A stretch of DNA of 64,000 bases from Nitrospiraceae bacterium (GCA_003599505.1 QZKO01000014.1:7774-71773), one strand, 5' to 3'; positions 16,060 through 48,055 are shown, numbered from the stretch's first letter. Made by a program: numbers and translations. The notes: a model not told the origin generated them from the sequence alone.

Positions 16060-16138
16060 TATTGTTTAATGACCTTAATTAATATGATTTGATTTGCTAT
16101 AAATTCTTTCATTGACTTTAGGCTAAAAAGGAGATACT

Positions 16139-24985: not shown

Positions 24986-25016
24986 AACCGGACATCATGC
25001 TTTACTCCGTCCGGTT
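24986..25016 (-). terminator. Candidate rho-independent terminator at the 3' end of the minus-strand epimerase gene
   Basis: AACCGGAC-N15-GTCCGGTT forms an 8-bp stem. On the minus strand it is followed by CCTCTTTTTCC. It spans the stop of 25002..25988. Confidence 0.35.
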
Positions 25017-26866: not shown

Positions 26867-27159
26867 AAAACTGCTCCGATTTTCTCCACGAGAAAATTAC
26901 CTGCCGCAAATTATCATACCACACTCAGAGTAGTATTTTTCCGGTTAGAAAGCCCGGCACCTGCGCTACATATAGCTTGACTTATCGAGCAGTGCGGGAT
27001 GCGCAACTGATTGCGTATTGTGTTAATATAAACAATGAGTTCTGCAATGCCGGCATCATTTATTTACCGTACTCATACTATTCTATTGCCTGATACCGAA
27101 ATCCAGATTTAATAATTGTTTATTTTACTGATTTATAGTGAGGGAAAAAACTATATTCA

Positions 27160-28131: not shown

Positions 28132-30305
28132 GGTATGAACTTTCTATCATTGCTCCTTGTTACAATGAGACTTTAAACATTCACGAGCTAATAGAGCGCT
28201 TACAGAATGTAATGAATAAGAAGAATATCAATGGTGAAATCATACTTGTAAATGATGGAAGTATTGATGATACGGGAGAAGTCATCGACCGGTCCTCGGC
28301 AAAATATGAGAATGTTACCGCTGTTCATCACAAAATAAATCAAGGCATTGCTGCTGCCTGGAAAACAGGCCTGTCCGTCTCGTCCGGCGAGTATGTATGT
28401 GTTATAGACGCTGACCTTCAATATCAGCCTGAAGATATATCGAGACTTTACAGGGAAATCAAGCTTACGAACATAGACGTAGCGCAGGGATACCGAAGCA
28501 ATATCGGACGTCAGATGGACTACAGATATTTTTTAAGTCGTGGCTTTAACCGTATCCTCAATCTTCTTTTTGGAATGAATCTGAAAGATAACAAATCGGG
28601 GTTTGTCTTGTGCAGGAGAGAGATTTTACAAGACATATTGCAGCATCGCTATCACTATTATTATTTTCAAAGCTTTATTGCTATCGCGGCCAAGGAAAAA
28701 GGGTATACAATTCGTGAAGTTGAAGTTTTGTTCAGAGAGAGACGTCTGGGGAAGTCTTTTATCCAAAGGTGGCCTTTAAATGTAATTATCTGCTGTATTA
28801 TCGACATAGTGAAAGCCTTCATTGAGCTGCGTGTATTTAAAAAAGATGAAGACATATTAAGAGATTTTCTTTTACACAATAAACCGGCGCATTATGAGGA
28901 AACTTTACCGGGATGGCGGAAGATCTTTTTTAAGTTTTATATTCTTTTGATGCCGCTTCATCACTGGATGATCTCGCGCGTTGCCATGCTTTATTATAAG
29001 GAATTAAAACAAAGTCAATGGTTGTCCCCGGACAAGATTAAGGAGCTGCAGGAAATAAAACTCAGAAGGCTTATTAACCAGGCCTATTATCATGTGGGGT
29101 ACTATAGGGAACTATTTGATGAACACGGATTAAAACCGTCAGACATTAACACTATTGAGGATTTACAAAAGTTGCCGTTGCTGGATAAACACAGTGTGCG
29201 AAACAATCTTTATTTTGATTTAATGTCCGATAATCATAATAAAAGAAATATTCTCAAGATAACTACGAGCGGTTCAACGGGCGAACCTTTTGTTTGCTAT
29301 GCCGACAAGCATCAACTGGAGATCAGGTGGGCGACAACCCTGAGAAGCATGGAATGGACCGGCTACCGTTTTGGAGATAAACAGGCGAGACTCTGGCATC
29401 AGACAATAGGAATGACACGGCTTCAGATCATTCGTGAGAAAATGGACGCGTTTTTCAATCGCAGACTGTTTATCCCTGCTTTTGAGATGAACAAGAAAAA
29501 CCTTAACCATTTAATCGGTAAATTGAAGATGCATGCCCCTGTTCTGATTGACGGATATGCTGAATCATTCAATTTCCTGGCCCATTATATAAAGAACATC
29601 GGCCTTGACGGAGTCCATCCCAAGGCGATTATATCATCTGCACAGGTGCTGCCGGAACATAGCAGAGAAATCATTGAAGATGAATTTAAATGCGGGGTCT
29701 TTGATAAATACGGAAGCCGGGAATTCTCCGGTATTGCTTATGAATGTAATGCGCATAACGGACATCACATTGTCGCAGAGAACTATATAGTTGAAATATT
29801 GAAAGATGGAAAAACTGCAAAACCCGGCGAAGTTGGAGAGATCATAATTACAGATTTGAATAATTACAGTATGCCTTTTATTAGATATCGTATCGGGGAC
29901 CTGGCGGTTGCGATGGACAATTCTGTTACTTGCGCCTGCGGAAGGGGATTGCCGCGAATTGGAAAGATCGAAGGTCGTGTTCAGTCTATTATTATAACGA
30001 CCAACGGAACATACATACCCAGCTCATTTTTTCTGCATTTGTTAAAGGATTATGATCATATTATAAGGCAGTTTCAAGTTGTGCAGGAAGAAGAGGGGAA
30101 GGTAACATTAAAGATTGTGAAAGGTCTAAGCTTTGCCGAAAGTGTCTTTAATGAAACCGTGTTAGGCTCTTTGCACAGGTATCTTGGCGATGACATGATT
30201 ATTAATGTGGAATTTGTCGATAAGATACAAATGGTCAGGACAGGCAAACATCAGACAAGCATATCAAAACTGAATTTTGATTACCAGAATATCAACAAGC
30301 ACTGA
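28128..30305 (+). CDS. Fusion protein: N-terminal GT2 polyprenyl-phosphate glycosyltransferase (Dpm1/ArnC-like) plus C-terminal CapK/PaaK-like adenylate-forming enzyme (phenylacetate-CoA ligase / F390-synthetase family)
   Basis: The N-terminus has LSIIAPCYNETLNIHE...ILVNDGSIDDTG...VIDADLQY (GT-A). After about 230 aa comes a hydrophobic stretch, then TTSGSTGEPFVCYADKHQLEIRW (the AMP-binding P-loop of the PaaK/CapK family) and later acyl-adenylate motifs. A single uninterrupted ORF spans both domains. I use the ATG at 28128, which overlaps the upstream stop by 4 nt. The ORF track lists a GTG at 28104. Confidence 0.6.
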   Translation: MRYELSIIAPCYNETLNIHELIERLQNVMNKKNINGEIILVNDGSIDDTGEVIDRSSAKYENVTAVHHKINQGIAAAWKTGLSVSSGEYVCVIDADLQYQPEDISRLYREIKLTNIDVAQGYRSNIGRQMDYRYFLSRGFNRILNLLFGMNLKDNKSGFVLCRREILQDILQHRYHYYYFQSFIAIAAKEKGYTIREVEVLFRERRLGKSFIQRWPLNVIICCIIDIVKAFIELRVFKKDEDILRDFLLHNKPAHYEETLPGWRKIFFKFYILLMPLHHWMISRVAMLYYKELKQSQWLSPDKIKELQEIKLRRLINQAYYHVGYYRELFDEHGLKPSDINTIEDLQKLPLLDKHSVRNNLYFDLMSDNHNKRNILKITTSGSTGEPFVCYADKHQLEIRWATTLRSMEWTGYRFGDKQARLWHQTIGMTRLQIIREKMDAFFNRRLFIPAFEMNKKNLNHLIGKLKMHAPVLIDGYAESFNFLAHYIKNIGLDGVHPKAIISSAQVLPEHSREIIEDEFKCGVFDKYGSREFSGIAYECNAHNGHHIVAENYIVEILKDGKTAKPGEVGEIIITDLNNYSMPFIRYRIGDLAVAMDNSVTCACGRGLPRIGKIEGRVQSIIITTNGTYIPSSFFLHLLKDYDHIIRQFQVVQEEEGKVTLKIVKGLSFAESVFNETVLGSLHRYLGDDMIINVEFVDKIQMVRTGKHQTSISKLNFDYQNINKH

Positions 30306-30306
30306 A

Positions 30307-32328
30307 TCATCGGCCGGTTGTATAAGTATCGCTCATATTGGGTTGATAAACAAATGGCTTGTCAGGATAATATTTCCTGAGTTCATTTGAAAGGAAGTCC
30401 ACGTCGGATTGGTTGAAGGATCCGATCCTTTCATAAAGATAAACCTTTGCTTTCTTCTTCTCAAGAGTAAGATTGAACTCGTAGGGGAGTCGTCTGTAAG
30501 AAGCGCCCATATCTTTCCCGTTTAGAATGGATTCAGCCGGAATGACGACGGTCAGTGTTTGTTCACGGCTGAAATCATGTTGTACCGGATCGGTTACAAG
30601 CACATACCGGGCTTTAAAAAGAGCATTGGGAAATCCGTCTTTCTGATCAAGTGCGCCGCTTCTGTAGATATGGTTTCCCATATACGGGGTGTCTGGAAGA
30701 GACAAATAGGCTTTTTCAATGATTTCAGAGTTTAAGAGGTCATTGCCCGCCAGAACGTACAGCCTGTCATCGGGATCAGTCAGGAGTCCTCGTATTACAC
30801 TCAGCATCCTTTTTATCTCAGGGATATCATGCCGTACAGGAGGCTCATATCTATTTATGGGAAACAGAGTTTTGGCCTGTTTTGTGTACGGAGCTGCTTC
30901 CGGGGAGAAAACAGCAGAAAAATTTAAAGACGCAATGAGAATATAAACGGAACAGATAGTGGCTCTTACAGTCCGTGATTTTACATTTAAAATAATTCCT
31001 GTTATGAACAATGAAATAAACAGGACTATGGTTGGTATTAAGATGTCATAATGGTGAGGGAAAAAACTGTGAATCCTTGTGAACAGGAAGAAAGTAAACG
31101 CCCATTGAATCAGCAGGAATGAAGCCAGTTTCCTGGTATTTCTGTAATAAAAGGATACAAATACACCTAACAAGGCCATAGCAATATAGAGAAAGCCAAA
31201 ATGCGCCAGGAATCTTTTGAAATCCTGCAAAGTAGTATCACTAAATTTATAAGCCGTTATATATGAATAATCACCGATAAATATTTTTATCAGAAAAGGT
31301 CCGGCTATCATTATGAAAAAAAATCCGGAAATGAAGATAGTAAACAATAGTTTCTTTGACAGAACAAGGAGTCTTTCGCGATCAAAACGATGCTCTATGA
31401 ATAAAAAGATATATTCATTAATGATAAGAGCAATAAAAAAGGAGGCAGCCCAGAAGATATAGTACTGACGGAAGATAACCAATACGGGAACCAATATGGC
31501 AAGGAAAACCAGGGTCCTGTATCTTTGGGCGGGAAACGGATATTTGAAATAGGAAAAGAGGATGAGACATATTATAAAAAAGCCGCCAATGCCGACATAT
31601 CCATCTAATAGAGGAACCCAGATAAAAGTGAATGAAAAGAAGGTGAAAAGAGCTACAAAGCTTGCGCTGATCGGGATGCGGTCATTATACAGCATTGCAG
31701 CGCTTCTTTTATATAAGAGGAGGAAAAATATGGCGGAAAAAAAGAGGAAGATGTTTACCATCGATAAAATAAAGGACAACCTCTGTGTACCGAATAATAG
31801 AGAAAATGGTGTCAACAGAAAGGGGGCCAATAAGTTGTAATGGTCAAACTGGATGCTGCCCAGAACAATTAGTATGGCATGTACAGGATTAGCTTTAAAT
31901 ACTGTGCTTATTCCTGCATACTTTTCAGGAAATATTGCTGAATCCCAACTGAAAATATAGTTTTGCTTCCCTACAATATGTATAGCAAATAAATTACTTG
32001 CAGTAAGAAAAAGAAGAAGCATTATAAGATCATATTTTGAAACCGAGGGGCGGTTTGCAAGGTCTCCTTTTCGTTCGAGCATATACTCATTATCATTGAA
32101 TTTCTTTTTGAAATAATTGATTAGCCCCGGGAATAAAAGCAAAGTCAGGCCTGTAATAATAAGGACGAAACCATTTCTTATGAAAAATAACTCCGTATAA
32201 CCGAGCCCCTTGCTTCCTATGCCCAACAAATCAGGTACAAAAGAAAGAAAGATAAAAAATAATCCCAGAACCGGCAGCGCCAATGAATACTTTTTTTGAG
32301 ATACCGGCTTATTATTTTTAGATAACAT
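30307..32328 (-). CDS. Large polytopic membrane protein with C-terminal periplasmic domain (function unknown; possible GT-C-like transferase/polymerase)
   Basis: It has about 12 or more hydrophobic helices followed by a soluble tail of about 200 aa. It is the last gene of the long minus-strand operon. Confidence 0.4.
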   Translation of the reverse strand: MLSKNNKPVSQKKYSLALPVLGLFFIFLSFVPDLLGIGSKGLGYTELFFIRNGFVLIITGLTLLLFPGLINYFKKKFNDNEYMLERKGDLANRPSVSKYDLIMLLLFLTASNLFAIHIVGKQNYIFSWDSAIFPEKYAGISTVFKANPVHAILIVLGSIQFDHYNLLAPFLLTPFSLLFGTQRLSFILSMVNIFLFFSAIFFLLLYKRSAAMLYNDRIPISASFVALFTFFSFTFIWVPLLDGYVGIGGFFIICLILFSYFKYPFPAQRYRTLVFLAILVPVLVIFRQYYIFWAASFFIALIINEYIFLFIEHRFDRERLLVLSKKLLFTIFISGFFFIMIAGPFLIKIFIGDYSYITAYKFSDTTLQDFKRFLAHFGFLYIAMALLGVFVSFYYRNTRKLASFLLIQWAFTFFLFTRIHSFFPHHYDILIPTIVLFISLFITGIILNVKSRTVRATICSVYILIASLNFSAVFSPEAAPYTKQAKTLFPINRYEPPVRHDIPEIKRMLSVIRGLLTDPDDRLYVLAGNDLLNSEIIEKAYLSLPDTPYMGNHIYRSGALDQKDGFPNALFKARYVLVTDPVQHDFSREQTLTVVIPAESILNGKDMGASYRRLPYEFNLTLEKKKAKVYLYERIGSFNQSDVDFLSNELRKYYPDKPFVYQPNMSDTYTTGR

Positions 32329-32475
32329 ATATCCTATATTAGAAACGGCCGTTCAACTTAGTCATACAAAATATTAAGGGAATAAGAAGACATTTATTTT
32401 AAGAAAAACATAATATAACATTATCAATATAACCGAACAAGTCGCAAGTTGCTATTTGAGTTGCAACCACTTAAT

Positions 32476-33717
32476 TTAATTCGCTGATGGATAACACTTT
32501 TTAAAACAGAACAATCGGCGCAAATCGTTCTTAAACCACTCAGGAAGCGATGAAAAAAATAGATAAAGCAAGCCGACTAAAATAATCCAGTTAGAAAACT
32601 CTTCCATAGCGAATGTTATTTTTCTTCCCAGGAAGCGCATTACAACGTTACTCCAGAGTGAAAACATTATTGCTGAAAAAGTAATGCGAGGAACTAATGA
32701 ATCGCCTTTATCGCAATCACGCATCCATACTACTAACTGGGGTATAGCAAAAACTAAAAACACCAGTCTGTAATCAACAGTATTCATCAGCAGGAAACAG
32801 CCTATATAAATTCCCGCTCCAATTCTGAAGGCATCAACATATTGCGGTTGTCTGCACAGTCCGGAGCCTGCTCTACGCATGCTGAAATATAAAGCTGCAG
32901 CCACCGATATAAAGGCCAAGATATAGGAAAGTATCTTAAAGAACAGCACTTGGCTGTCAGACAGAGGGAGATGATAGAAACGCCCGTGTCTCAGCGCCAT
33001 CCACCATACATCTCTTCCAAATGAACTGCTGACGCCTTTGGGCGCCGTCTTGAAGAGCTGTATAAAATCAGTAATCGATAATAACGCATAGAGAACGAAG
33101 ATACCTGATCCCGTTAGAAAAAGAAACCAGAATTTCCTTTTATGTTCTTTCAGAAGATATGGAATTCCAAAAATCGGATACAGTTTAAGTATCGCGGCGA
33201 ATAAGAAGATCAGCAGTGCCGAAATACTCGAGTAAGAATTTATGACCAGCGCGAGGGATAATATGAAAAATATTATTAACTCTATGTTCGATCTTTCCAC
33301 CCCGAGCATTACAGGAGGGGAGAGAATAACAAAAAACAGGATAAGGTACGTGAAATTATCAAAATTTCCGGAGAACCAGAAGATGCCGATACCGATGAGA
33401 AATAAGATTATTACGATGCTCCCCAATATATTTGTATGGCTCTCATTAATTCCCAGGGAGAAAAGGGCGTGCCATATTCTCGGATAATTAAGCAGTGTGC
33501 CTCTGGGATTGACAGTATTTTTGTAGATTTGATCATGTCCTTGAGCATGTGATTCCGACGCCCATGCGAACTGACGTGAATCGAAAAAGCCGGGAGGGTC
33601 CAGGGGGAGCTGCCACTTTCTTATCAAGAAATCATTATGAAGAGATACGAATGAAAATATCGATGCCGTTATTATCAGTATGATGGCGACAAACAGTATT
33701 AATTTCAATCTGGTCAT
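32476..33717 (-). CDS. Polytopic membrane protein (possible GT-C / DUF2029-like mannosyltransferase-type)
   Basis: It has about 10 TM helices. The first periplasmic loop is rich in aromatic and acidic residues. Confidence 0.35.
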   Translation of the reverse strand: MTRLKLILFVAIILIITASIFSFVSLHNDFLIRKWQLPLDPPGFFDSRQFAWASESHAQGHDQIYKNTVNPRGTLLNYPRIWHALFSLGINESHTNILGSIVIILFLIGIGIFWFSGNFDNFTYLILFFVILSPPVMLGVERSNIELIIFFILSLALVINSYSSISALLIFLFAAILKLYPIFGIPYLLKEHKRKFWFLFLTGSGIFVLYALLSITDFIQLFKTAPKGVSSSFGRDVWWMALRHGRFYHLPLSDSQVLFFKILSYILAFISVAAALYFSMRRAGSGLCRQPQYVDAFRIGAGIYIGCFLLMNTVDYRLVFLVFAIPQLVVWMRDCDKGDSLVPRITFSAIMFSLWSNVVMRFLGRKITFAMEEFSNWIILVGLLYLFFSSLPEWFKNDLRRLFCFKKCYPSAN

Positions 33718-33748
33718 ATGATTGGAAATAGAATGTTTTTAAAATATG

Positions 33749-35287
33749 TTATCCCTGTCTTGCTTTCATCCATATTTCGTATATTCCATATGTTTTCTTT
33801 AATTCATAATTGCTGCCGATGTAATTATCAAGCAAATTAACATTCGAATCAATTTTGCTCAGATTGGGCTCATATCGATCCCGCACAGCCAGTACGACCA
33901 AAGGGGTATCGTTATTTCTTAATTCATTAATCATTTCGCTTTGCGCTTCAACGGTAGTGGTTACGCCTGCATCCAACTCATGATATTTTGTCGCGCAATT
34001 CCTCTCCGCAAGAAAGTAAATAACCGGATCGTTAAAACGAAATTGATCATGGTTTTTGACACCAACATATATATATTCATTTTCTAAGGTATTGTTTTTA
34101 ATAAAGGTGACTGTTTCTTTTAAGTTTGAATCTATAATCAAATATCTGATTCTATCCATGTCAGCGTTTACAGTACTCACGATATAACCTTTTGTGCGTT
34201 TTAAAATCAGCTCGATAGTGCTGATCGGTCTGATAAATGCGACGCTAAAAACGATAATGAACATCACATAAACACCTCTTTTCTGCCATGTGTTGAGTGA
34301 TAACGTTTCAGGCAATGAGCACAGTAAAATTGAAGCAGACACAATTCCCGTCAGGGCAACGGGAAGCAAATGTGGTATATCTGATCGAACACTGACCTGA
34401 AACATGAAAAGCAAACCGATGAGGGAGATAAGCAGTCCTCCATAGGCCACCATATGATCAGTTTTGCGTTTCATCAGGACCAAAGAAATGATGACGCTGA
34501 TCAAAAGCACAACCGGGAATAAATAAAAGGAGAACGCATATATTGACAAGGAAGGATAAGGGAGTTGCGCATATTCAGTCAGGACATTAAGAGGCATAAG
34601 GATCATATCATTGATTATAAATTTTAAAGCGGAATTCAGAAAGAAATAAATAATTACGGGTAATGCCGATATCATTCCGATCACTATAAAAGAAATGAAC
34701 GGGGTCCATGATTTTCGCACCCCGGTTATTCTCATGACAAACAGGACAACAGCCATAGCTATAGCAGCGTATCCTCCCAAATCATGTCTAAATAGAATAG
34801 CCAGGACAATGGCCACAGCGCTTAACGCGACATAATAAATTGTATTGTGTTTCATATGTAACAAGAGAAAATACACACTGATATATATAAAAAGAACAGA
34901 TGGATATACCGGATACCCCGGATAACTGCTATGTCCCATCCAGACAAGAGACATCGTCCATCCGACAAATGCCAATTTATTTGATGCCAATAACCTTATG
35001 ATCAAAAAAATAAAAAGAGATAGAAGAGCTCTTACTGCAATATCATATATCCTTTCAGTGGTAACGGACGTCCCGAATATATTAAAAAGCGCTGCTATTG
35101 TGTAATATTGCCCGGGTGGATATGCACTGCTGAAATCTTTATATGGGATTTGCCCTTTCAGGACTCTTTCTGCTCCAAAAAGGATTAGCCCTTCATCATA
35201 AGGGCCCAGACCTATATTGAGTATTGGAAGATAATATATCGCGGCGACAATAAAGATGAGGATCAATAATAGAATATTTTTTTTCAT
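33749..35287 (-). CDS. GT-C-like polytopic membrane glycosyltransferase
   Basis: The N-terminal TM helix is followed by GLGPYDEGLILFGAERVLKG (the DE loop motif). It has more than 11 TM helices. I use the ATG at 35287 (MKKNILLL), giving a 1-nt spacer to the upstream stop, rather than the longer 35332 start. Confidence 0.45.
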   Translation of the reverse strand: MKKNILLLILIFIVAAIYYLPILNIGLGPYDEGLILFGAERVLKGQIPYKDFSSAYPPGQYYTIAALFNIFGTSVTTERIYDIAVRALLSLFIFLIIRLLASNKLAFVGWTMSLVWMGHSSYPGYPVYPSVLFIYISVYFLLLHMKHNTIYYVALSAVAIVLAILFRHDLGGYAAIAMAVVLFVMRITGVRKSWTPFISFIVIGMISALPVIIYFFLNSALKFIINDMILMPLNVLTEYAQLPYPSLSIYAFSFYLFPVVLLISVIISLVLMKRKTDHMVAYGGLLISLIGLLFMFQVSVRSDIPHLLPVALTGIVSASILLCSLPETLSLNTWQKRGVYVMFIIVFSVAFIRPISTIELILKRTKGYIVSTVNADMDRIRYLIIDSNLKETVTFIKNNTLENEYIYVGVKNHDQFRFNDPVIYFLAERNCATKYHELDAGVTTTVEAQSEMINELRNNDTPLVVLAVRDRYEPNLSKIDSNVNLLDNYIGSNYELKKTYGIYEIWMKARQG

Positions 35288-35288
35288 A

Positions 35289-36038
35289 TCAGCTATTTTC
35301 TTTTCTTGCCACACAAAAAACTGAGAGACCAAAAGGGAGCTTTACCCCTGACATTATAAGTTTGTTTTCAAGGAATAAAAGATGCGTAAATATTTTATTG
35401 AACAGGCAGCCGGATTGATTAAGGTCGGAATCACTGTCGTCCTTGTTCACAAAAATAAATTTGTCAACCATTCTCTTAATTGCGGCTATGGGGAAAAGCA
35501 GTGTATTTCGATATGTGATTATCTCTATTCTAAACCCGGCTTTTTCCAGGTCGCTTTTCAATCCTTCTATTGTATACCTTCGCCTTGTATGAATCGCTAC
35601 ATCATGCTTGCTTTTTAAAAAATTATAAGCGGGTACGTTTAACAGTAATATTCCATTTGGACTGATAACTTCATGGAGTTCTTTCAATGTATTTACGTCA
35701 TTTTTCACGCCCATGTGATAAATAACATCTAAAGAAACTACAATATTAAATAAATTATTTTTAAGGGGAACTTCGCATATTGAACCCCTGATCAGGTTAT
35801 TTATATTTCTCAATTTGCAAAAGTTAATTGCAACTTCCGAAAAATCCAGACCAAAAGCCCGGTACGCTTTACACTCATCAAGAAATTTGCCTGTACCGCA
35901 ACCCGCATCCAATATTCTCATGCCATCATGTTTATGACTAAACTTATCAATAGAAGAAAAGACCAGGTCCCTTAATCCAACATACCACCAGTAGTTATCT
36001 TCTATGTTAAATATAACTTCATATACTTTCTTTTCCAT
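35289..36038 (-). CDS. Class I SAM-dependent methyltransferase (size and architecture compatible with sugar N-methyltransferases of the TylM1/DesVI type)
   Basis: MRILDAGCGTGKFLDE is motif I. An acidic residue ends beta2 (GLDFSE). The protein is about 250 aa. Confidence 0.7.
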   Translation of the reverse strand: MEKKVYEVIFNIEDNYWWYVGLRDLVFSSIDKFSHKHDGMRILDAGCGTGKFLDECKAYRAFGLDFSEVAINFCKLRNINNLIRGSICEVPLKNNLFNIVVSLDVIYHMGVKNDVNTLKELHEVISPNGILLLNVPAYNFLKSKHDVAIHTRRRYTIEGLKSDLEKAGFRIEIITYRNTLLFPIAAIKRMVDKFIFVNKDDSDSDLNQSGCLFNKIFTHLLFLENKLIMSGVKLPFGLSVFCVARKENS

Positions 36039-36190
36039 TGAGCACTATGATCTTATCAGACAATGATTCTATAGATACATTGATTTTTGCTTAATCATAT
36101 AAGCATGACGGTAGAAAACGAATTGACGATGTCAACGGTTGTTTATATTTAAACCATTATTTTTAGTATCACTCATTGTCTCTATAGAAA

Positions 36191-37300
36191 TCAATTAATA
36201 TTTGCAATGATATCATGTAACGCTTTAACAGTTATTTGTTGTTCGTCATCGGAAAGGGAAGGATACATAGGTAGAGAAAAGATCTCTTTAGCAGCATCCT
36301 CCGTATGAGGTAAATCACCCTCTTTGTAACCTAAAAACTGATAACCTGTCATGGCATGAATGGGCCATGGATAACTGATATTAACGAAAATGTCTCTGTT
36401 TTTCAGTCCCTCAATAATCTGATCTCTACGGGGGTGCCGGCAAACGTATAAATAATATACATGCTTATTGCCCTGCTTTGTTTTCGGTAAGGTAAGTTTC
36501 GCGTTTAATAACATGTGATCATATTTTTGTGCAAGAAGTCTTCTGCGCTTTATATATTCTTCAATATGTTGCAGCTTACTTAAAAGAATCGCCGCATGAA
36601 GCTCATCGAGTCTTGAATTGTAACCGTGCTCTACTGAATAATATGTCTTCTCCATGCCGTAAAAACGAAGCCGGAGCAGTTTCTTGTACAGCTTTTCACT
36701 ATTTGTTAAAACCATACCACCGTCTCCATACCCGCCGAGGATCTTGGTTGGGTAAAAAGAGAAGGCTGAAACGTCTGACATAGAGCCGGCCTTATTGCCG
36801 TTAAAGATCGCTCCATGACTCTGGGCGCAGTCTTCAAGGACCTTGAGACCATAAGCATCAGCTACCCGTTTGACGTCGTCCATATTTACGCATTGGCCGT
36901 AGAGGTGAACCGGAAGGATACACTTTGTCTTCTTCGTAACTGCTTTCTCCAGCAAAGAGGTGTCCATAAGGTAAGTTTCCGGGTCTATGTCGACAAATCT
37001 TGGAACTGCGCCGGTTGAAACAATAGCCGATACCGTCGGGACAGCGGTATTGGACACGGTTATTACCTCATCTCCAGGACCTATACCTAATCCCTTCAGA
37101 CCGAGGAATATAGCATCCGTCCCGCTATTGACACCTACTCCGAATTTTACTCCGCAATATTCAGCAAATGTTTCCTCAAATTTCTTTACGTTCTCTCCGA
37201 GTATCAGGCATCCCGACCTCAAGACCTTTTCTATCGAGGCATGAATCTCCTCTTTTTCCTGTTCATATTCTTTCAAGTAGCTCCAAATTTTTATAGACAT
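36191..37300 (-). CDS. DegT/DnrJ/EryC1/StrS-family PLP-dependent sugar aminotransferase
   Basis: GVNSGTDAIFLGLK and SAFSFYPTKILGGYGDGGMV (PLP Lys) are present. Confidence 0.85.
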   Translation of the reverse strand: MSIKIWSYLKEYEQEKEEIHASIEKVLRSGCLILGENVKKFEETFAEYCGVKFGVGVNSGTDAIFLGLKGLGIGPGDEVITVSNTAVPTVSAIVSTGAVPRFVDIDPETYLMDTSLLEKAVTKKTKCILPVHLYGQCVNMDDVKRVADAYGLKVLEDCAQSHGAIFNGNKAGSMSDVSAFSFYPTKILGGYGDGGMVLTNSEKLYKKLLRLRFYGMEKTYYSVEHGYNSRLDELHAAILLSKLQHIEEYIKRRRLLAQKYDHMLLNAKLTLPKTKQGNKHVYYLYVCRHPRRDQIIEGLKNRDIFVNISYPWPIHAMTGYQFLGYKEGDLPHTEDAAKEIFSLPMYPSLSDDEQQITVKALHDIIANIN

Positions 37301-37303
37301 TCG

Positions 37304-38305
37304 TTACTCCTTCAATAAGGCGGCTGACCGCATTCTGTGCAACACGCGTGCGTCTGAAAGCAAATTTTCTATAAGATATTTGTGATCCCCTCCCTGAACT
37401 GCTTCAATAACTTTTTGCATATAGATTGAAAAACTGTCGGCTTTAGGAACCTTTATCACGGCACAGGTATTGCGATGTCTGACCTGTATTTCGTTTTCCA
37501 TCTCTGCAGGAGTTGTGAAGATGCGCTCGATGGCGGCGTATACCGTGGGGCCAATCAAGCCGAGGTAATTGCTGTATTCCGTATCAAACCCGAAATGACC
37601 CACCATGGACCTCCCCCCTTTATAGGCTGCAAGCATGCTGAAAGAGGTCTCCACGTTATCGCTTCCGCCATAACTGCAAATCCTGCAGAAAACCTTCTCA
37701 GGTTCTTCCCCGAAAAATAACCTGCCGACAGATACCGCGTAAGAACCGAGATCCAAAAGAGCTCCTCCGCCGAGATACTTCTTATATCTGAAATCATCGG
37801 GTTTTAAGGGAGGGAAAGAAAACACCGCCGTTAACCTTGTCGGGCCGCTTTTTGTTTCAGAATAGATATTCCTGATGGCCTGTATTTGCGGGTGAAAAGC
37901 ATAGACTGTCGCCTCGGATAAACATAAACCGGATTTTCGGGCCAATTCCGCCAGGTTTTTCGTAGTCTCGAAATCAGTGAATGCCGGTTTGTCGACAATT
38001 ACGTGAAATCCGCGTAAAAGCGCTTTCTCTGCCCACTTGGCGTGTTTGCTGTTAACGGTTGAAATATAAACCAGGTCGGCTCTGCTTTTTGCCAAAGCGG
38101 TATCATAATCATCAAATATTTCACCTTTATATTTATAAGGCAGTGATATCTTTGATGCGGACGACAGCGAAGCTACGTCTACGCGCGTGATAGAAGGGAT
38201 GACAGACAGGGCGGGTATGACACGCTTTTGTACAATGCTGGAATATCCAATAAATAATATATTCATTTTAATATGTAAAAAGTCCGTTAAATGAAGCTTA
38301 AACAA
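37304..38305 (-). CDS. Gfo/Idh/MocA-family NAD(P)-dependent oxidoreductase (sugar-nucleotide dehydrogenase / ketoreductase)
   Basis: The N-terminus MNILFIGYSSIVQKRVIPAL is a Rossmann fold. An EKP-type motif region (GFHVIVDKPAF) is present. Confidence 0.75.
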   Translation of the reverse strand: MFKLHLTDFLHIKMNILFIGYSSIVQKRVIPALSVIPSITRVDVASLSSASKISLPYKYKGEIFDDYDTALAKSRADLVYISTVNSKHAKWAEKALLRGFHVIVDKPAFTDFETTKNLAELARKSGLCLSEATVYAFHPQIQAIRNIYSETKSGPTRLTAVFSFPPLKPDDFRYKKYLGGGALLDLGSYAVSVGRLFFGEEPEKVFCRICSYGGSDNVETSFSMLAAYKGGRSMVGHFGFDTEYSNYLGLIGPTVYAAIERIFTTPAEMENEIQVRHRNTCAVIKVPKADSFSIYMQKVIEAVQGGDHKYLIENLLSDARVLHRMRSAALLKE

Positions 38306-39738
38306 GAAAGTATGTTTCTTGCCTCAATATTTAAATAATTATTATACTTTTTAAAAGTCATTATTTGATTCAAAGTCATCCATTTATAATTTTCAGGTAT
38401 ATCTATCAATGTGGAATCATCTATCTCGACTATCATGTTCTTGTTCTGCCAATGATAAAACCTTCCACCTTCTTCAGATTGGATAGAATAATATCTTATC
38501 CGGGTCGGGTCAGCACTTATAAAAATCTCCAGAAAAGGTGGTTTATTTGACTGCCGCATACGGTATGCAGCATCTGCGCATGATACCGTAGGAGCCATCT
38601 CAACGACGTCAAGATTCCCGGGTTCCGGCTTTCCCTGAACCAAAAAGTGGAGTACGTTGTGTATCTTCTTGACAAGAAAGCCTATCAGACCGTAGGAATA
38701 ATGCTTTAATAACGGCTGGGTCCACGTCAAAACCTCCCTGCTTCCAGCTGTTACCGAAACCGCGATCACGGAAAAGAATTGCCCGGATTCATGGTGAATT
38801 TCTTTATCAGTGCATATCCACCCGGATACCGCCTTCAAAGGGATATTCTCTACCTTCATATAATATTTTGTTTTTAATTCCGTGAACCAGCTGATTATTT
38901 CATCTGTATTGTGAAGGGCCCGCTTTTCGTCAATTATTGAAGTAAATATGTCTTTACAAAACCCTTGAAGTTTGCAGTCAAACAGTTCTATCTCGTCGGG
39001 CTCTCCTGACAGCAAATATTCATAACCCCGCCTCATCTCATCATTAATAAAGGGGATGCATGATATGACCGATCTGGTATCCATATTTACAAAATTATCA
39101 AGGGACAGAAGTCTCTTTATTTGTCCTAACGTAAGCCATTGGAAGTCATCGTACAATTGTATGTCTTCATCCACTTCAACTATCATATTCCGGTTCCGTT
39201 TGCGCAGAAAACGTGACCCCTGTTCTGACTGCAGCTGGTCTATGAGAATTGTTGATTTCGACCTGTCAAGAAAATACTCAAGATAAGCAGGCAGTTTACC
39301 TTTATGTACCTGAGTGTAGTTGCTTTTGGTGGCCTGAACCGTGGGCGACAGCTGGTTGATATTTATATTGCCGGGCTCCATCTTTGACTGCATAAGGAAA
39401 TACCTTATCCCATCAACCTTCTTTGTAACTATTCCCAGAATGCCGATCTCAGGCTGGTTGATGATAGGCTGTTCCCAGTCTTTAAAAGGGCCGAAATTAG
39501 TATGTACTCTGATGCCCTCAACTTTGAAAAACTTCCCGGAAGCGTGAACAAGATTTTGCGAATCTTCTTCGAAATACCATTTGTCAAGTTTCTCAAATGA
39601 AATCTGTTCTACAGAAAATAAATTTGCTGTTTCCCTTGAATTAAACCAGTGAATAAAATCGTTTGTCTTCAGGAAACGATTTTCTTCCGTTAGAGCGGAC
39701 AAAAGGAAGCTGGATTCTTTAGATTTTGTGTTGAACAT
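38287..39738 (-). CDS. NDP-hexose 2,3-dehydratase (EvaA/TylX3/Hexose_dehydrat family), two tandem homologous domains
   Basis: An internal duplication is visible. HASGKFFKVEG...GILGIVTKKVDGIRYFLMQSKMEPGN (N-terminal half) parallels HESGQFFSVIA...GLIGFLVKKIHNVLHFLVQGKPEPGN (C-terminal half). The protein is about 480 aa, typical of the family. Confidence 0.6.
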   Translation of the reverse strand: MFNTKSKESSFLLSALTEENRFLKTNDFIHWFNSRETANLFSVEQISFEKLDKWYFEEDSQNLVHASGKFFKVEGIRVHTNFGPFKDWEQPIINQPEIGILGIVTKKVDGIRYFLMQSKMEPGNININQLSPTVQATKSNYTQVHKGKLPAYLEYFLDRSKSTILIDQLQSEQGSRFLRKRNRNMIVEVDEDIQLYDDFQWLTLGQIKRLLSLDNFVNMDTRSVISCIPFINDEMRRGYEYLLSGEPDEIELFDCKLQGFCKDIFTSIIDEKRALHNTDEIISWFTELKTKYYMKVENIPLKAVSGWICTDKEIHHESGQFFSVIAVSVTAGSREVLTWTQPLLKHYSYGLIGFLVKKIHNVLHFLVQGKPEPGNLDVVEMAPTVSCADAAYRMRQSNKPPFLEIFISADPTRIRYYSIQSEEGGRFYHWQNKNMIVEIDDSTLIDIPENYKWMTLNQIMTFKKYNNYLNIEARNILSCLSFI

Positions 39739-39752
39739 CTTTATCCGGAAAT

Positions 39753-40208
39753 CTAACTCTTTGTTTTTGTCGTGTAATTAAAGTTGTTCTTTACGGTTTC
39801 CATGTATTCTTCCCAGCTTCTAATTGATTTCGAAATATCATAATGCGTGTTAGCCAATACCACGCATACAGCATCGCCGGAAAAATCATAGATTCTTATA
39901 AAAATCATCCTGGGGATATAAAGTCCTCGAGTTGCATCATTCAACTCATATATCTCTGAATTAATTCCATCAGACAGGTTTATTTTAAACGAACCGGAAG
40001 AAGCAATAACAATTTGGTCGGTATCAACATGAGCATGTCCACCTCTTGGAGAGGAAATATGGTGCATATAGAAAATTCGTTTTATACTAATCGGAATATC
40101 AAATTCGCTCTCTATTGACGTCAAGGTGCCCCTCGAATCGGTAATAGATGGTAATACGATCCATTTGACATATTTTAAGCTTGGCTTTGAAATCTGTTTT
40201 GGCGACAT
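39753..40208 (-). CDS. FdtA/QdtA/WxcM-like cupin (sugar 3,4-ketoisomerase / epimerase-type)
   Basis: DSRGTL...RIFYMHHISSPRGGHAHVDTDQ...SGSFKINLSDG matches the FdtA-type RG.HAH...G......DG pattern. It is about 150 aa. Confidence 0.55.
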   Translation of the reverse strand: MSPKQISKPSLKYVKWIVLPSITDSRGTLTSIESEFDIPISIKRIFYMHHISSPRGGHAHVDTDQIVIASSGSFKINLSDGINSEIYELNDATRGLYIPRMIFIRIYDFSGDAVCVVLANTHYDISKSIRSWEEYMETVKNNFNYTTKTKS

Positions 40209-40234
40209 GATTCTTATAATACTATCTAAGCGAG

Positions 40235-41089
40235 CTATTTCTTATGACAAACAACGGTTTGAAAATATGTGCTTCGCATTAATCGACTTAACATAAATAT
40301 TCCCCACACCCCGCTCCGGAAAATGGCGTTGAATATGGGAGATTGAACAGGGGAATCGACTGCGGACAGAGGGAAATTATGAAAAAGTATTTTCTTGACG
40401 GACAATTCATTAATATGTAACAAATGGCTGAGAGAAGAAACATTGAAGTGATTGAGATGATGCCTGTTGTAGAGTCGTTCAAGAGGCATAGTACAGCCAA
40501 ATCGATGGAGCAAGCGTGAAATTCCATAAATAATTCCCCGATCGTTTACGGTCGTAATTATTACTAATCCGTTTGGAGAACATAATTCATAAAGACGCCT
40601 GGTGAATTTCTGAACATCTGCCACATGTTCTATAACGGCTGTGTTAACAACAACATCAAATTGCCGATTTAAATCAGCACTGAAAATATCAGCATGTAGA
40701 AAATGTACCCCTTCGACAGGAGAATTCTCATACAGGTCTATGCCGGTTAAGGATAACCTGTGATTTTTCTTTCGGAGAAACTTAAGAAAATCACCTCTCC
40801 CGCAACCTATATCGATAACAGAAGCATCAGGTTTGAAATTTGTAATAGATTTATTATACGTCTCGAACAGGGCAATATTAGGATTATTAAACCAATTAGC
40901 ATGTGAGACATTAAAATATTCAGAATCATATTCTTCAAAATTACCTTTAAGGTCGCTAAAGCAATGATCACAATTTGGGCAACGATAGAGGTTAAGGTCA
41001 GAAAAACTATACTCCATGAAACTCATTGCGCCACAAATTGTACAGTTTAATTCTTCAGCATTATTACTTTTTATCGCCATAGTATTCAT
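40235..41089 (-). CDS. Class I SAM-dependent methyltransferase with N-terminal Cys4 zinc ribbon
   Basis: CTICG...CPNCDHC supplies four Cys. VIDIGCGRGDFLKFL is motif I. Zn-ribbon methyltransferases occur among sugar C- and O-methyltransferases. Confidence 0.65.
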   Translation of the reverse strand: MNTMAIKSNNAEELNCTICGAMSFMEYSFSDLNLYRCPNCDHCFSDLKGNFEEYDSEYFNVSHANWFNNPNIALFETYNKSITNFKPDASVIDIGCGRGDFLKFLRKKNHRLSLTGIDLYENSPVEGVHFLHADIFSADLNRQFDVVVNTAVIEHVADVQKFTRRLYELCSPNGLVIITTVNDRGIIYGISRLLHRFGCTMPLERLYNRHHLNHFNVSSLSHLLHINELSVKKILFHNFPLSAVDSPVQSPIFNAIFRSGVWGIFMLSRLMRSTYFQTVVCHKK

Positions 41090-42026
41090 ATTTGTTTCTT
41101 ATGGTATATTGAGGTTTTTTATTCAGAGAAAGAAAAATCCTTCCAATGTATTCTCCAACCATACCCAGCATTATTAGCTGTATTCCACCGAAAATTGAAA
41201 TTGAAACAAACAAACTTGCAAAACCTACCGGCACATCGGGATTTATAAATCTTTCAATCGCAGTATAAATACCCAAAAGCAATCCAATAGTAGCAAATAT
41301 GAGTCCCAGGATAATTGATGTTCTCAATGGCAGGATAGAAAAATTGGTAAACATATTCATCCATAAGGAAATCAGCTTTTTGAATGTATACCCTGAACTT
41401 CCTTGTATTCGTTTCTGATGATCTACATCGATTTTACCGATATTATCCGTGATTTGAATTATTAAACCATCAATATAAGGAAATGGCGCCTCATATTTAA
41501 TAATTTCATTTACCAGAAATTTATTTAAAACCTTAAAACTTGAAAGATACAGGTCTCTTGGTTTCCCTAACATGAGGTTGGCAACCTTGTCATTAAGCCA
41601 GCTTCCCAGATTTCTGAAAAAATTATGCCTTTTTTTTTCGTAATGCGAATATACTACATCATAATCATTATCCAGGGAGGCCTTTACAAGTTTCAAAACT
41701 TCACTTATTGGGTTCTGGAAATCGTCATCCATGATAACTGTATAATCGCCGGTTACATTGTTTAATCCTGCCATTACCGCGCTGTGTTCACCAACGTTTT
41801 TTGACAAGGAATAAAATTTCACGATCTCTTTATTTTTCTCGAACAAGGATATACACACTTCATCCGAGTTGTCTCGCGAATTATCATTAACAAGAATAAT
41901 CTCAAGCCTGAAAAGGGGGACCAACTCTCTGATCAGTTCTTCAACCAGTCTGCTTATGGTTTTTTCAGAGTTATATACGGGAACAATAACAGATAATGAA
42001 GTTAACGAGGTGGTTTTGTTCATCAA
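41064..42026 (-). CDS. GT2 polyprenyl-phosphate glycosyltransferase with C-terminal TM hairpin (ArnC/GtrB-like)
   Basis: LSVIVPVYNSEKTIS...ILVNDNSRDNSDEV...IMDDDFQ is GT-A with a DXD motif. Two C-terminal TM helices (IILGLIFATIGLL.../GFASLFVSISIFGGIQLIMLG) follow. It is paralogous to 61101..62063. Confidence 0.75.
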   Translation of the reverse strand: MMNKTTSLTSLSVIVPVYNSEKTISRLVEELIRELVPLFRLEIILVNDNSRDNSDEVCISLFEKNKEIVKFYSLSKNVGEHSAVMAGLNNVTGDYTVIMDDDFQNPISEVLKLVKASLDNDYDVVYSHYEKKRHNFFRNLGSWLNDKVANLMLGKPRDLYLSSFKVLNKFLVNEIIKYEAPFPYIDGLIIQITDNIGKIDVDHQKRIQGSSGYTFKKLISLWMNMFTNFSILPLRTSIILGLIFATIGLLLGIYTAIERFINPDVPVGFASLFVSISIFGGIQLIMLGMVGEYIGRIFLSLNKKPQYTIRNKYEYYGDKK

Positions 42027-42132
42027 TTTTCATTAATTATAACAAATAAATCAAAAACAAGAAAGCGTTTGCCGTGTATTAGAGACTATTACACTTCCGA
42101 CTTAATGTACGTGTGACTTTACGGCGGTTCCA

Positions 42133-42160
42133 TATAATTCTCTCTTTCGGGAAAGAGAGG
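42133..42160 (+). promoter_or_regulatory. Candidate -10 box (TATAAT) immediately followed by a strong hairpin in the divergent GT2/GT2 intergenic region
   Basis: TATAAT lies at 42133-42138. CTCTCTTTC-GG-GAAAGAGAG gives a stem of about 9 bp at 42141-42160. A -35-like GTGACT lies 14 nt upstream, which is suboptimal spacing. Confidence 0.25.
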
Positions 42161-42283
42161 GTCAGGACTGTTGCGTCAAATAACATAGATATTACAAATA
42201 ATCATCAGGTAGCATTTAGTTTGCTAATAAGTATATAATATACATAGTTAAATTTAAATTGTTAATGAATCAGATTAGCCAGT

Positions 42284-42997
42284 TTGAATAATAGTTCAGA
42301 TAAGCCATCCATAGCCGTATTTTTCCCTGTATACAAAGATGAGGGCACAGTTGAGAAAGTCGCAATGAAAGCCCTAAGAGTCTTGTCTGATATAGCCTCT
42401 CAGTATAAAGTTATTATTGTTGATGACGGAAGTCCTGACAGGTCAGGAGAAATCGCTGATCGATTGGCAGCAAGATATCCGGAAGTACAATCTGTACATC
42501 ATGATAATAATCTTGGATATGGCGCTGCCCTTAAAACGGGTTTTAAATATTCACTTGGTTATGAGTGGATTTGCTTCACAGACGGGGATGATCAGTATGA
42601 TGTTAACGAATTGTATCATTTATCAAAGTTGTTTCATCACTTTGACCTGATTGTAACGTTCCGTTACTCAAAAATATATGGAACACTAAGGACGTTTATG
42701 TCTTTTGTATATAATTTTGTTATTAGATGGTTATTTAAGTCTCATTTACGTGATCATAACTGTGGATTAAAAGTAATCCGCTCAAATGTTGTTAAAGATA
42801 TGGAGCTAATTTCAAATAGCGCATTTATTGGCGCGGAAATTGTCATTAATGCTATGGTAAGAGGATATCCTATTGGTGAAGCGGGAATAAGGACATATCC
42901 AAGAACCTTCGGCGAGTCGAGTGTTACGTCTGTTAAGAATATAGTCAATAGTATCCTTGATATGCTGAGGGTTTACAAGAAAATATTCAAACAATAA
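42284..42997 (+). CDS. GT2 polyprenyl-phosphate glycosyltransferase (Dpm1-like, soluble)
   Basis: IAVFFPVYKDEGTVE...IIVDDGSPDRSGEI...FTDGDDQY is GT-A with DXD. Confidence 0.7.
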   Translation: MNNSSDKPSIAVFFPVYKDEGTVEKVAMKALRVLSDIASQYKVIIVDDGSPDRSGEIADRLAARYPEVQSVHHDNNLGYGAALKTGFKYSLGYEWICFTDGDDQYDVNELYHLSKLFHHFDLIVTFRYSKIYGTLRTFMSFVYNFVIRWLFKSHLRDHNCGLKVIRSNVVKDMELISNSAFIGAEIVINAMVRGYPIGEAGIRTYPRTFGESSVTSVKNIVNSILDMLRVYKKIFKQ

Positions 42998-48046: not shown

Positions 48047-48055
48047 CGGCGGTTT

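Follow-up and report, generated by a model that had tools for sequence, protein, structure and literature searches.

What would a sugar pathway known from antibiotic clusters do inside an exopolysaccharide locus? NDP-hexose 2,3-dehydratases appear in a 2022 review only from antibiotic pathways (PMC8987622), and 2-deoxy sugars have accordingly been treated as hallmarks of actinomycete antibiotics. A stretch of 64,000 nucleotides from a Nitrospiraceae bacterium (GCA_003599505.1, QZKO01000014.1:7774-71773), called the window here and analyzed at its full length, carries a gene of this dehydratase family, whose product is 100% identical to a protein from a MAG (metagenome-assembled genome) labeled Nitrospiraceae bacterium. 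The window as a whole is an exosortase (EpsH)/DUF3485 exopolysaccharide (EPS) locus; the PEP-CTERM/EpsH system is EPS associated (PMC1569441). The dehydratase gene lies in a block of ten open reading frames (ORFs) at positions 30307-42026, together with genes for other sugar-tailoring enzymes, a GT2 glycosyltransferase of the ArnC/GtrB type, and three polytopic membrane proteins. We consider it probable that this block is a lipid-carrier decoration module resembling the Arn and Gtr systems, in which the tailoring part has been replaced by a 2-deoxygenation cassette.

The ten-gene block and its enzymes

The minus strand does contain all ten ORFs, arranged head to tail. They are given here in order of descending coordinates.

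41064..42026, minus: polyprenyl-phosphate (Pren-P) GT2 of the ArnC/GtrB type, 320 amino acids (Pfam Glycos_transf_2, 98 bits)
40235..41089, minus: class I S-adenosylmethionine (SAM) methyltransferase, 284 amino acids, with an N-terminal CxxC...CxxC zinc-ribbon-like motif (Methyltransf_23, 78 bits)
39753..40208, minus: FdtA/QdtA-type cupin, predicted NDP-hexose 3,4-ketoisomerase (Pfam PF05523, FdtA)
38287..39738, minus: two-domain NDP-hexose 2,3-dehydratase of the EvaA/TylX3 family, 483 amino acids (Pfam PF03559, Hexose_dehydrat)
37304..38305, minus: Gfo/Idh/MocA (GFO) oxidoreductase, KijD10-like predicted NDP-hexose 3-ketoreductase (Pfam GFO_IDH_MocA)
36191..37300, minus: pyridoxal phosphate-dependent NDP-sugar aminotransferase, DegT/DnrJ/EryC1 family (DegT, 376 bits)
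35289..36038, minus: class I SAM methyltransferase, 249 amino acids, candidate sugar N-methyltransferase (Methyltransf_11, 54 bits)
33749..35332, minus: predicted GT-C glycosyltransferase, PMT_2/GT39/ArnT-like, 527 amino acids (PMT_2, 25.5 bits against a cutoff of 26.1)
32476..33717, minus: predicted GT-C glycosyltransferase, GT87/PimE/PIG-M-like, 413 amino acids (GT87, 26.2 bits against a cutoff of 25)
30307..32328, minus: predicted GT-C-fold membrane protein, 673 amino acids, with a C-terminal soluble domain of about 190 residues (structure model)

The spacing between neighboring genes ranges from -44 to +31 bp, except for two gaps of about 150 bp, one preceding the gene for the 249-residue methyltransferase and the other preceding the last gene, which encodes the 673-residue protein. 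By this tight spacing the block is operon-like. Likely true starts are ATG 42023 for the GT2, ATG 38266 for the GFO reductase, and ATG 35287 for the 527-residue protein, the last of these one base past the methyltransferase stop codon. On one side, the block stops a single base short of a convergent gene; on the other, a 257-bp divergent region separates it from a plus-strand gene for a soluble GT2 (42284..42997). The GC content of the window is low, about 35-45%. The same set of ten genes, in unchanged order and with protein identities of 75-91%, was found in two independent metagenome assemblies, which rules out an assembly artefact as the source of the arrangement.

Catalytic residues or motifs appear intact in the five block enzymes in which they were checked. 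The product of 38287..39738 matched Hexose_dehydrat in two stretches with 508 bits and aligned with EvaA (4j7g; E = 8.5e-126) over two domains, residues 11-231 and 273-481. Mutation of the pocket A glutamates E139 and E190 abolishes EvaA activity (PMC8987622). These residues correspond to E121 and E172 in the alignment with the block dehydratase, and both are invariant in 24 homologs. The protein is predicted to be a dTDP-4-keto-6-deoxyglucose 2,3-dehydratase. Its gene is followed directly by that of the GFO reductase, whose best solved match was KijD10 (3rbv; 1e-34, 124 bits), with the next Gfo/Idh/MocA structure at 1e-14 (at most 56 bits). The lysine of the KijD10 EKP motif aligns with the lysine of a DKP motif in the block reductase, and the tyrosine of GVY aligns with that of GSY. 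We take the active-site residues of KijD10 to be K102 and Y186, which were mutated in 3rc7, 3rc9, and 3rcb; this numbering assumes an inferred 18-residue tag offset.

The cupin matched the FdtA profile with 116.6 bits over 128 of its 131 positions. Its solved matches, QdtA (2.9e-23), FdtA (2.3e-21), and also WlaRA/RB, fall in the range of 1e-20 to 1e-23. Residues 55-60 read RGGHAH and contain the histidine pair of GHAH, a sequence pattern that fits the catalytic His-x-His pair of FdtA, presumably H49 and H51. The DegT-family protein retains the Schiff-base lysine within an SFYPTK motif and is thus an aminotransferase and not a dehydrase of the ColD/E1 type, which has a histidine at this position.

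Full-length matches of the 320-residue GT2 to solved structures were obtained with ArnC (9hwj; 6.5e-41) and GtrB (5ekp; 1.7e-37), the alignments covering residues 8-311; the next solved match, DPMS, fell to 1e-11. The DXD motif D100-D-D-F-Q-N105 is in register with 100-DADLQN-105 of ArnC (94-DADLQD-99 in GtrB), and two C-terminal transmembrane (TM) helices are predicted at residues 238-256 and 272-290. Among NCBIfam models, ArnC (160.6 bits) and PgfS (156.6 bits) both scored under their equivalog cutoffs. The cutoff of the ArnC equivalog (NF007986) is 529, so far above the observed score that the protein is not an ArnC ortholog. We rejected ArnC proper for this reason and because the block encodes no formyltransferase, decarboxylase, deformylase, or small flippase.

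Each of the three membrane proteins has about 9 to 11 predicted TM helices. The 527-residue protein, with about 10 helices and a YDEG motif after TM1, has about 110 relatives, many of which carry PF13231 or are named GT39, and by family membership it is predicted to be a PMT_2/GT39-like GT-C. An AlphaFold2 model of the 413-residue protein (pLDDT 91, pTM 0.91) gave eight top Foldseek hits that were all of the GT-C fold, among them PIG-M (8e-5), PimE, ALG6, ALG3, and ArnT; another of the eight, PIG-U, is a subunit of the GPI transamidase. D46 in its putative first loop is invariant, and D62 is nearly so. No Pfam or NCBIfam model matched the 673-residue protein, whose family is small, with 13 relatives. 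Its AlphaFold2 model (pLDDT 78.9, pTM 0.80) gave twenty top Foldseek hits that were likewise all GT-C, including ALG12 (1.3e-6), ArnT (1e-4), PglB, STT3, DPY19, AftA, and Emb, and W128-D129 is invariant in the family. In their models, then, both the 413- and the 673-residue proteins have the GT-C fold.

The two methyltransferases differ in their distribution. Among the loci examined, which we designate by L numbers, homologs of the 284-residue enzyme, with its motif C16-x2-C19...C37-x2-C40, occur in L001 and L002 only, and its gene is an accessory one limited to the closest relatives. Homologs of the 249-residue enzyme (36-85% identity) adjoin the cassette in L001-L004, L026, and L029. A Pfam scan of the block found neither TcaB9/EvaC-type domains (Methyltransf_13 zinc plus Methyltransf_14) nor a 3,5-epimerase.

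Most of these assignments bear out the original prediction, a reading of the DNA sequence alone. It had staked its case on 38287..39738 belonging to the 2,3-dehydratase family, and the Hexose_dehydrat and EvaA matches place it there. It had also named an ArnC/GtrB-like Pren-P GT2, now backed by the full-length match, the DXD motif, and the two C-terminal helices; an FdtA-like cupin, in agreement with the Pfam and QdtA/FdtA structure matches; a GFO oxidoreductase of the family that includes KijD10, as the Pfam match, the gap between KijD10 and the next structure, and the adjacency to the dehydratase gene confirm; a DegT aminotransferase, which the Pfam score bears out; and a zinc-ribbon methyltransferase, for which both the Methyltransf_23 match and the paired CxxC motif were recovered. 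Its "two or three" GT-C-like proteins are three, as judged by family and profile matches and by Foldseek searches with two of the models. The description of the second methyltransferase as "TylM1 sized" is right as to size, but the protein has generic class I Pfam matches and no detectable similarity to TylM1/DesVI. A search for TylM1/TcaB9-type methyltransferases, which had been proposed as a check, matched neither enzyme of the block.

Proposed route and its relation to known systems

We propose that dTDP-4-keto-6-deoxyglucose would be supplied by RmlA and RmlB encoded outside the window and that the EvaA-type enzyme would dehydrate it to the 3,4-diketo-2,6-dideoxy sugar. The KijD10-like reductase would then reduce C-3, the FdtA/QdtA-like cupin would move the keto group from C-4 to C-3, and the QdtB/DesV-like aminotransferase would form dTDP-3-amino-2,3,6-trideoxyhexose, which one or both methyltransferases might N-methylate. 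The ArnC/GtrB-type GT2 would transfer the sugar to undecaprenyl phosphate (Und-P) at the inner membrane face, and after flipping, at least one of the three GT-Cs would add it to an acceptor on the periplasmic side. This acceptor is most likely the polysaccharide made by the locus itself; the parallel with ArnT makes lipopolysaccharide or lipid A possible, and the parallel with PMT enzymes a secreted protein. With five tailoring enzymes in line, no keto group would be left unreduced, which suggests that the route is self-contained.

We infer the order of the steps, the stereochemistry, the nucleotide, the N-methylation, the identity of the lipid carrier, and the acceptor. The class of the product, a 3-amino-2,3,6-trideoxyhexose, is the robust part of the proposal, whichever order the steps take. 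Within that class, the product is likely unbranched and possibly N-methylated, of the angolosamine or acosamine type; N,N-dimethylation together with the arabino configuration would place it in the angolosamine type. The original prediction had gone further and invoked vancosamine/mycarose-type chemistry. This was too specific: because neither a TcaB9-type C-methyltransferase nor a 3,5-epimerase is encoded in the block, an unbranched sugar is predicted in place of such L-sugars, and we rejected the branched type.

The actinomycete gene sets, such as EvaA-E for epivancosamine and those for daunosamine, angolosamine, and megosamine, share with the block the first committed enzyme and the predicted class of product. 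Their route runs by direct amination of the 3,4-diketo sugar, followed by a 4-ketoreductase of the short-chain dehydrogenase/reductase (SDR) family and transfer to an aglycone by a GT1. The block, in contrast, has a KijD10-like 3-ketoreductase and an FdtA/QdtA isomerase intervening, and it has no C-methyltransferase, epimerase, GT1, or aglycone genes. The pairing of this isomerase with this reductase would make a hybrid route unlike the EvaA/EvaB/EvaE route of actinomycetes. We found no mention in the open-access literature of an EvaA/KijD10-type enzyme together with QdtA/FdtA, which is weak evidence of novelty.

The second half of the route resembles the synthesis of dTDP-Qui3NAc and dTDP-Fuc3NAc by QdtA-C and FdtA-C for S-layers and O antigens, which includes the same shift of the keto group to C-3 and the same C-3 amination. 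QdtA and QdtB (2.6e-95) are the closest solved relatives of known function for the block cupin and aminotransferase. The differences are that the substrate in the block would already be 2-deoxygenated, that a methyltransferase stands in place of the N-acetyltransferase, and that delivery would proceed through Und-P and a GT-C and not through a cytoplasmic Leloir glycosyltransferase. The proposed route would thus be a 2-deoxy version of the Qui3N/Fuc3N route.

For the delivery of the sugar, the closest parallel is the Arn (Pmr) pathway, in which ArnB, ArnC, and ArnT add L-Ara4N to lipid A and with which the block shares the sequence of aminotransferase, ArnC-type GT2, and GT-C. Unlike Arn, the block is predicted to handle a dTDP-derived 2-deoxy-6-deoxy hexose and not a UDP-pentose; it has methyltransferases where Arn has formylation enzymes and three GT-Cs where Arn has one; and it lacks ArnA (decarboxylase/formyltransferase), ArnD (deformylase), and ArnE/F (flippase). 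These absences, together with the score of the GT2 under the ArnC cutoff, place the block outside the Arn pathway. The Gtr, CsbB-YfhO, and GacI-GacL systems also resemble it, in that a GtrB-like GT2 makes a Pren-P-monosaccharide and a polytopic GT-C decorates preformed surface polymers. They transfer common sugars (Glc, GlcNAc) from UDP donors without dedicated tailoring genes, however, and the block, unlike Gtr-type systems, has no GtrA-family flippase.

Gene linkage in other genomes and competing explanations

If the sugar cassette and the carrier enzymes belong together, they should be linked beyond the window. We assembled 87 loci with EvaA homologs, of which 7 were retrieved by exact protein matches and 80 by scanning the GTDB species genomes. 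The FdtA-EvaA-GFO-DegT cassette was found in about 15 of them (KijD10-like reductase at least 36% and DegT at least 58% identical to those of the block), in metagenome-assembled genomes (MAGs) labeled Omnitrophota, Thermodesulfobacteriota, Anaerolineae/Chloroflexota, Gamma- and Deltaproteobacteria, Armatimonadota/Chthonomonadales, and Acidobacteria, as well as in close relatives of the window's MAG. Usually the gene for an ArnC/GtrB-type GT2 is found next to the cassette; in L020, L024, and L029 it directly precedes FdtA. In one locus, L011, it lies within the cassette, separating EvaA from the GFO reductase. The arrangement GT2-FdtA-EvaA-GFO-DegT-methyltransferase adjoins PMT_2 genes in Omnitrophica and Thermodesulfobacteriota MAGs, and L035, a related EvaA locus, carries a GT-C of the YfhO family. 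The GFO gene comes right after EvaA in nearly all loci, those of actinomycetes included.

An ArnC/GtrB-type GT2, defined by at least 85% coverage, a length of 280-400 amino acids, and a C-terminal TM helix, was present within 10 kb of EvaA in 21 of the 87 loci. All 21 are among the 74 nonactinomycete loci, and none is among the 13 from actinomycetes. Since many contigs are short, this number is a lower bound. The linkage across lineages and its absence from actinomycete loci support the claim, made at the outset, that the sugar is handed to a Pren-P GT2 and GT-Cs and not to a GT1. The accompanying claim that this is an "unusual chemotype" holds for the literature, given the antibiotic origin of the reviewed dehydratases, but does not hold for genomes: at least 589 GTDB species representatives encode EvaA homologs. 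Such homologs occur in Bacteroidota, cultured Bacteroides timonensis among them, and in MAGs labeled Verrucomicrobiota, Chloroflexota, Omnitrophota, and Acidobacteria/Acidobacteriota, as well as in those of one cyanobacterium and a DPANN archaeon.

Two sibling modules, L088 (JGI 3300036760) and L089 (GCA_040961595), show what is kept when the cassette is replaced. Both encode orthologs of the GT2 (74-77% identity), of the DegT aminotransferase (72-74%), of the 527-residue GT-C (56-59%, within modules of the form GT2-SDR-DegT-GT-C), and of the 413-residue GT-C (53-63%). One extended SDR stands in for FdtA, EvaA, and GFO, and there is no ketoisomerase. The best NCBIfam matches of this SDR were RmlB and LegB, at 130-140 bits and under the cutoffs, and its best PDB match was a GalE-like epimerase. 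The exchange of the deoxygenation cassette for an SDR, with GT2, DegT, and GT-Cs retained, points to a modular Arn-like scaffold. The conserved unit consists of a GT2, a maker of the keto sugar, an aminotransferase, an optional methyltransferase, and a GT-C, which by analogy is the logic of the Arn pathway.

Three other EvaA loci lie in different settings.

L008, Aenigmatarchaeota MAG JAUWZW010000002: RmlB-like SDR, EvaA, EvaB-like DegT, and a TcaB9-type C-methyltransferase/3,5-epimerase fusion
L050, Bacteroides timonensis AP1, NZ_CBVI010000086: in order, Wzx, EvaA, GFO, DegT, an unknown protein, a PglD-like acetyltransferase, PGA_cap, and GT2
L006, GCA_040960375: EvaA, two TcaB9-type C-methyltransferases, a 3,5-epimerase, and a GFO reductase

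The archaeal locus, which has SDRs, a PMT_2 GT-C, and LPG_synthase_TM proteins alongside, suggests a branched 3-amino-2-deoxy sugar on a surface glycan. The capsule locus of B. timonensis, a cultured gut Bacteroides, has no ArnC-like GT2 and is predicted to make an acetamido 2-deoxy sugar. The glycan locus L006, which in addition encodes STT3, PMT_2, Wzx, and an initiating transferase of the WecA family, suggests that a branched, mycarose-like 2,6-dideoxy sugar enters a surface-glycan or N-glycan pathway. TcaB9-type domains accompany EvaA in L006, L007, and L008.

Several observations weigh against the block being a self-sufficient module of the kind that we propose. Neither RmlA nor RmlB is encoded in the window; three SDRs at 25002-28131 scored 92-158 bits, far under the RmlB cutoff of 365, and were rejected as candidates for it. 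No GtrA-, ArnE/F-, or Wzx-like flippase is encoded within the block. The characterized Pren-P GT2s discussed in a preprint on ArnC all use a UDP- or GDP-sugar, and we found no precedent in the literature for one that uses dTDP. At E <= 1e-5, the 284-residue methyltransferase had no match in the PDB and the 249-residue enzyme had a single weak one, LahSB (1e-6); neither resembles a solved sugar N- or C-methyltransferase, and they could be O-methyltransferases or enzymes that act on the polymer. The lack of similarity to TylM1/DesVI is nevertheless compatible with N-methylation and does not exclude it. The best solved match of the aminotransferase is 7b0d, for which we found no function in the literature, and in the sibling modules its ortholog is paired with one unclassified SDR and no isomerase. 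Conservation of the window's three GT-Cs does not extend past the closest relatives and L088 and L089; in less closely related cassette loci, their place is taken by PMT_2, YfhO, or unannotated polytopic proteins. Pfam scans of the polytopic proteins near the cassette in those distant loci mostly gave no match, the exceptions being one YfhO, one Wzy_C-TPR protein, and one unrelated permease, and by these scans no conserved GT-C partner was demonstrable beyond the family level. Finally, a promoter and terminator consensus scan of 29800-42500 returned 39 promoter-like sites against 40 expected, a chance level that is uninformative on operon structure or transcription.

Some of these points fit a different division of labor, in which the tailored dTDP-sugar is an ordinary part of the repeat unit, added to an Und-PP-oligosaccharide by a cytoplasmic GT4 or GT2, and the Pren-P GT2 and GT-Cs handle a common UDP-sugar such as Glc or GlcNAc. 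The donor preference of characterized Pren-P GT2s favors it, as do the at least five GT4s, the several soluble GT2s, and the Wzy_C protein encoded in the window, and the EvaA-GFO-DegT set in the Wzx-type capsule locus of B. timonensis shows that 2-deoxy sugar pathways can feed conventional assembly. This arrangement would leave unexplained why the GT2 abuts the cassette in distant phyla and lies inside it, between EvaA and GFO, in L011. It also fits poorly with the sibling modules, in which GT2, DegT, and GT-Cs remain together when the genes that form the keto sugar are swapped, as expected if the GT2 takes the product of the aminotransferase. We therefore judge assembly through the repeat unit to be unlikely, although it is the likeliest of the alternatives.

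A second alternative keeps the module and changes the position of the amino group. Here, C-4 amination of a dTDP-4-keto-2,6-dideoxyhexose would give a 4-amino-2,4,6-trideoxyhexose of the 2-deoxy-viosamine or kedarosamine type, with the cupin playing another role or none. The combination of a 4,6-dehydratase-like SDR and a DegT without an isomerase is the classic recipe for C-4 amination, and this is what the siblings offer, with their DegT and a single extended SDR that is most like 4,6-dehydratases and epimerases. Strict C-3 specificity is hard to reconcile with these loci, which leaves room for C-4 amination. Moreover, the paradigm cargo of ArnC and ArnT, Ara4N, is a 4-amino sugar, and the top NCBIfam matches of the block aminotransferase are the C-4 enzymes PseC (272 bits) and ArnB (209 bits). 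The solved structures point the other way. After 7b0d, the next five matches are QdtB (323 bits), 7n63, DesV (274 bits), WbpE (263 bits, 4.6e-77), and 5u1z, spanning 257-323 bits, all of which we take to be C-3 aminotransferases, against 208 bits (2e-60) for the best C-4 enzyme, perosamine synthase, and 152 bits for ArnB. An FdtA-like gene is also present in every locus that has both a DegT at least 58% identical and a KijD10-like gene. In the archaeal, EvaA-E-like locus L008, a 63%-identical DegT ortholog comes straight after EvaA and is partnered, as EvaB is, with EvaA and a C-3 C-methyltransferase, which supports the C-3 assignment. On these similarities the aminotransferase is most likely C-3 specific, and we regard amination at C-4 as distinctly unlikely.

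The remaining two alternatives can be dealt with briefly. Decoration of a small secreted natural product, with the position in an EPS locus incidental, would agree with the antibiotic origin of all the 2,3-dehydratases in the 2022 review, but domain scans of the 64-kb window found no polyketide synthase, nonribosomal peptide synthetase, GT1, or aglycone-forming genes, the neighbors are exosortase, Wzy, MBOAT/AlgX, GT4, GT2, and GT-C genes, and the contexts in other phyla are of the glycan type, so that we rejected a natural-product cluster as very improbable. Gfo/Idh/MocA and DegT proteins are an established pairing in the synthesis of UDP-GlcNAc3N and UDP-GlcNAc3NAcA, and the aminotransferase matched WbpE well, yet a GnnA/GnnB- or WbpB/WbpE-type 3-oxidase and transaminase acting on a UDP-sugar with its 2-substituent kept, while EvaA and FdtA serve another product, is scarcely credible given that the reductase scored 124 bits with KijD10 against at most 56 with other solved members of its family and directly follows EvaA nearly everywhere.

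The most probable reading remains a lipid-carrier decoration module with a 2-deoxygenation cassette. The link between cassette and carrier enzymes recurs in several uncultured phyla and has not been described experimentally. Our searches of the open-access literature gave no precedent for a 2,3-dehydratase or EvaA in connection with polysaccharide, O antigen, or undecaprenyl, the relevant results being papers on antibiotics and O-antigen papers that lack 2,3-dehydratases, which is weak evidence, and no description of a lipid-phosphate-linked 2-deoxy sugar. Whether the block represents a widespread, undescribed class of Arn-like decoration, found in several bacterial phyla and with related sets in a DPANN archaeon, in which the GT2 takes a dTDP-linked N-methylated 3-amino-2,3,6-trideoxyhexose, made by 2-deoxygenation combined with a Qui3N-type route, and the GT-Cs attach this cationic sugar of antibiotic type to surface glycans or proteins, is a question on which we find the arguments evenly balanced. 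If so, it would be the first instance both of a lipid phosphate carrying a 2-deoxy sugar and of a Pren-P GT2 that depends on dTDP, and the Pren-P GT2/GT-C mechanism would carry a dTDP-derived, chemically labile 2-deoxy glycosyl phosphate. 2-Deoxy glycosides are acid labile and may not survive standard hydrolysis. Sugars of this kind would also be structural components of the cell envelope in many uncultured lineages, and a cationic amino sugar at the periplasmic face would alter surface charge, just as the attachment of Ara4N to lipid A does. The exchange of the cassette for an SDR on a conserved GT2-DegT-GT-C scaffold is a clear case of modular evolution in glycan decoration. For glycoengineering, the block would offer a four-gene route to a 3-amino-2,3,6-trideoxyhexose, a GT2 tolerant of deoxy sugars, and three GT-C transferases.

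Other glycan genes in the window

Outside the block, the window encodes Wzy_C, GT4, and soluble GT2 proteins, an MBOAT/AlgX pair, an acyltransferase, and five radical-SAM proteins. A search of the window for PEP-CTERM substrate proteins gave one spurious out-of-frame match. The features closest to the subject of this work are as follows.

42284..42997, plus: soluble GT2, DPM/PpgS-like, no TM helix (Glycos_transf_2, 80 bits)
28104-30305, plus: 733-amino-acid fusion of an N-terminal GT2 resembling ArnC/PgfS, one TM helix, and a CapK/PaaK/F390-synthetase-like adenylate-forming domain
16139-17248, minus: DegT aminotransferase of the LegC/WecE/PseC (C-4) type, second Arn-like module
15295-16059, minus: soluble 254-amino-acid GT2, DPM/AglJ-like, second Arn-like module
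13723-15264, minus: 513-amino-acid PMT_2 GT-C, second Arn-like module
19507-20898, 43151-44548, and 54107-55534: B12-binding radical-SAM proteins
8324-9331 and 23699-24799: radical-SAM/SPASM proteins
6554-8227, 44611-46170, and 55827-57710: three further polytopic proteins with 7-8 predicted TM helices and no Pfam match
46616-49222, plus: MBOAT (AlgI-like) and AlgX-like SGNH pair

The soluble GT2 divergent from the block matched the NCBIfam models for PpgS, dolichyl-phosphate hexose transferase, and ArnC, all under the cutoffs. Its ortholog keeps the divergent position in L088 (84% identical) and in L001, and it may be a second lipid-phosphate sugar synthase that feeds the same set of GT-Cs. 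At the opposite end, the gene for the 733-residue GT2-CapK-like fusion faces the last gene of the block in convergent orientation; L001 and L002 have conserved it as well. The second Arn-like module (13723-17248, minus strand) is simpler than the block and is followed by genes for two unannotated proteins (10592-13517).

The three B12-dependent radical-SAM enzymes could be C- or O-methylases of sugars, and genes of this type also adjoin related modules in L007 and L089. The three further polytopic proteins may be additional GT-C or Wzy-like enzymes. With four candidate lipid-phosphate GT2s and these extra polytopic proteins, the locus looks unusually rich in periplasmic-face glycosylation. The MBOAT/AlgX-like pair, which L001 likewise has close to the block, suggests that the exported polysaccharide is O-acetylated.

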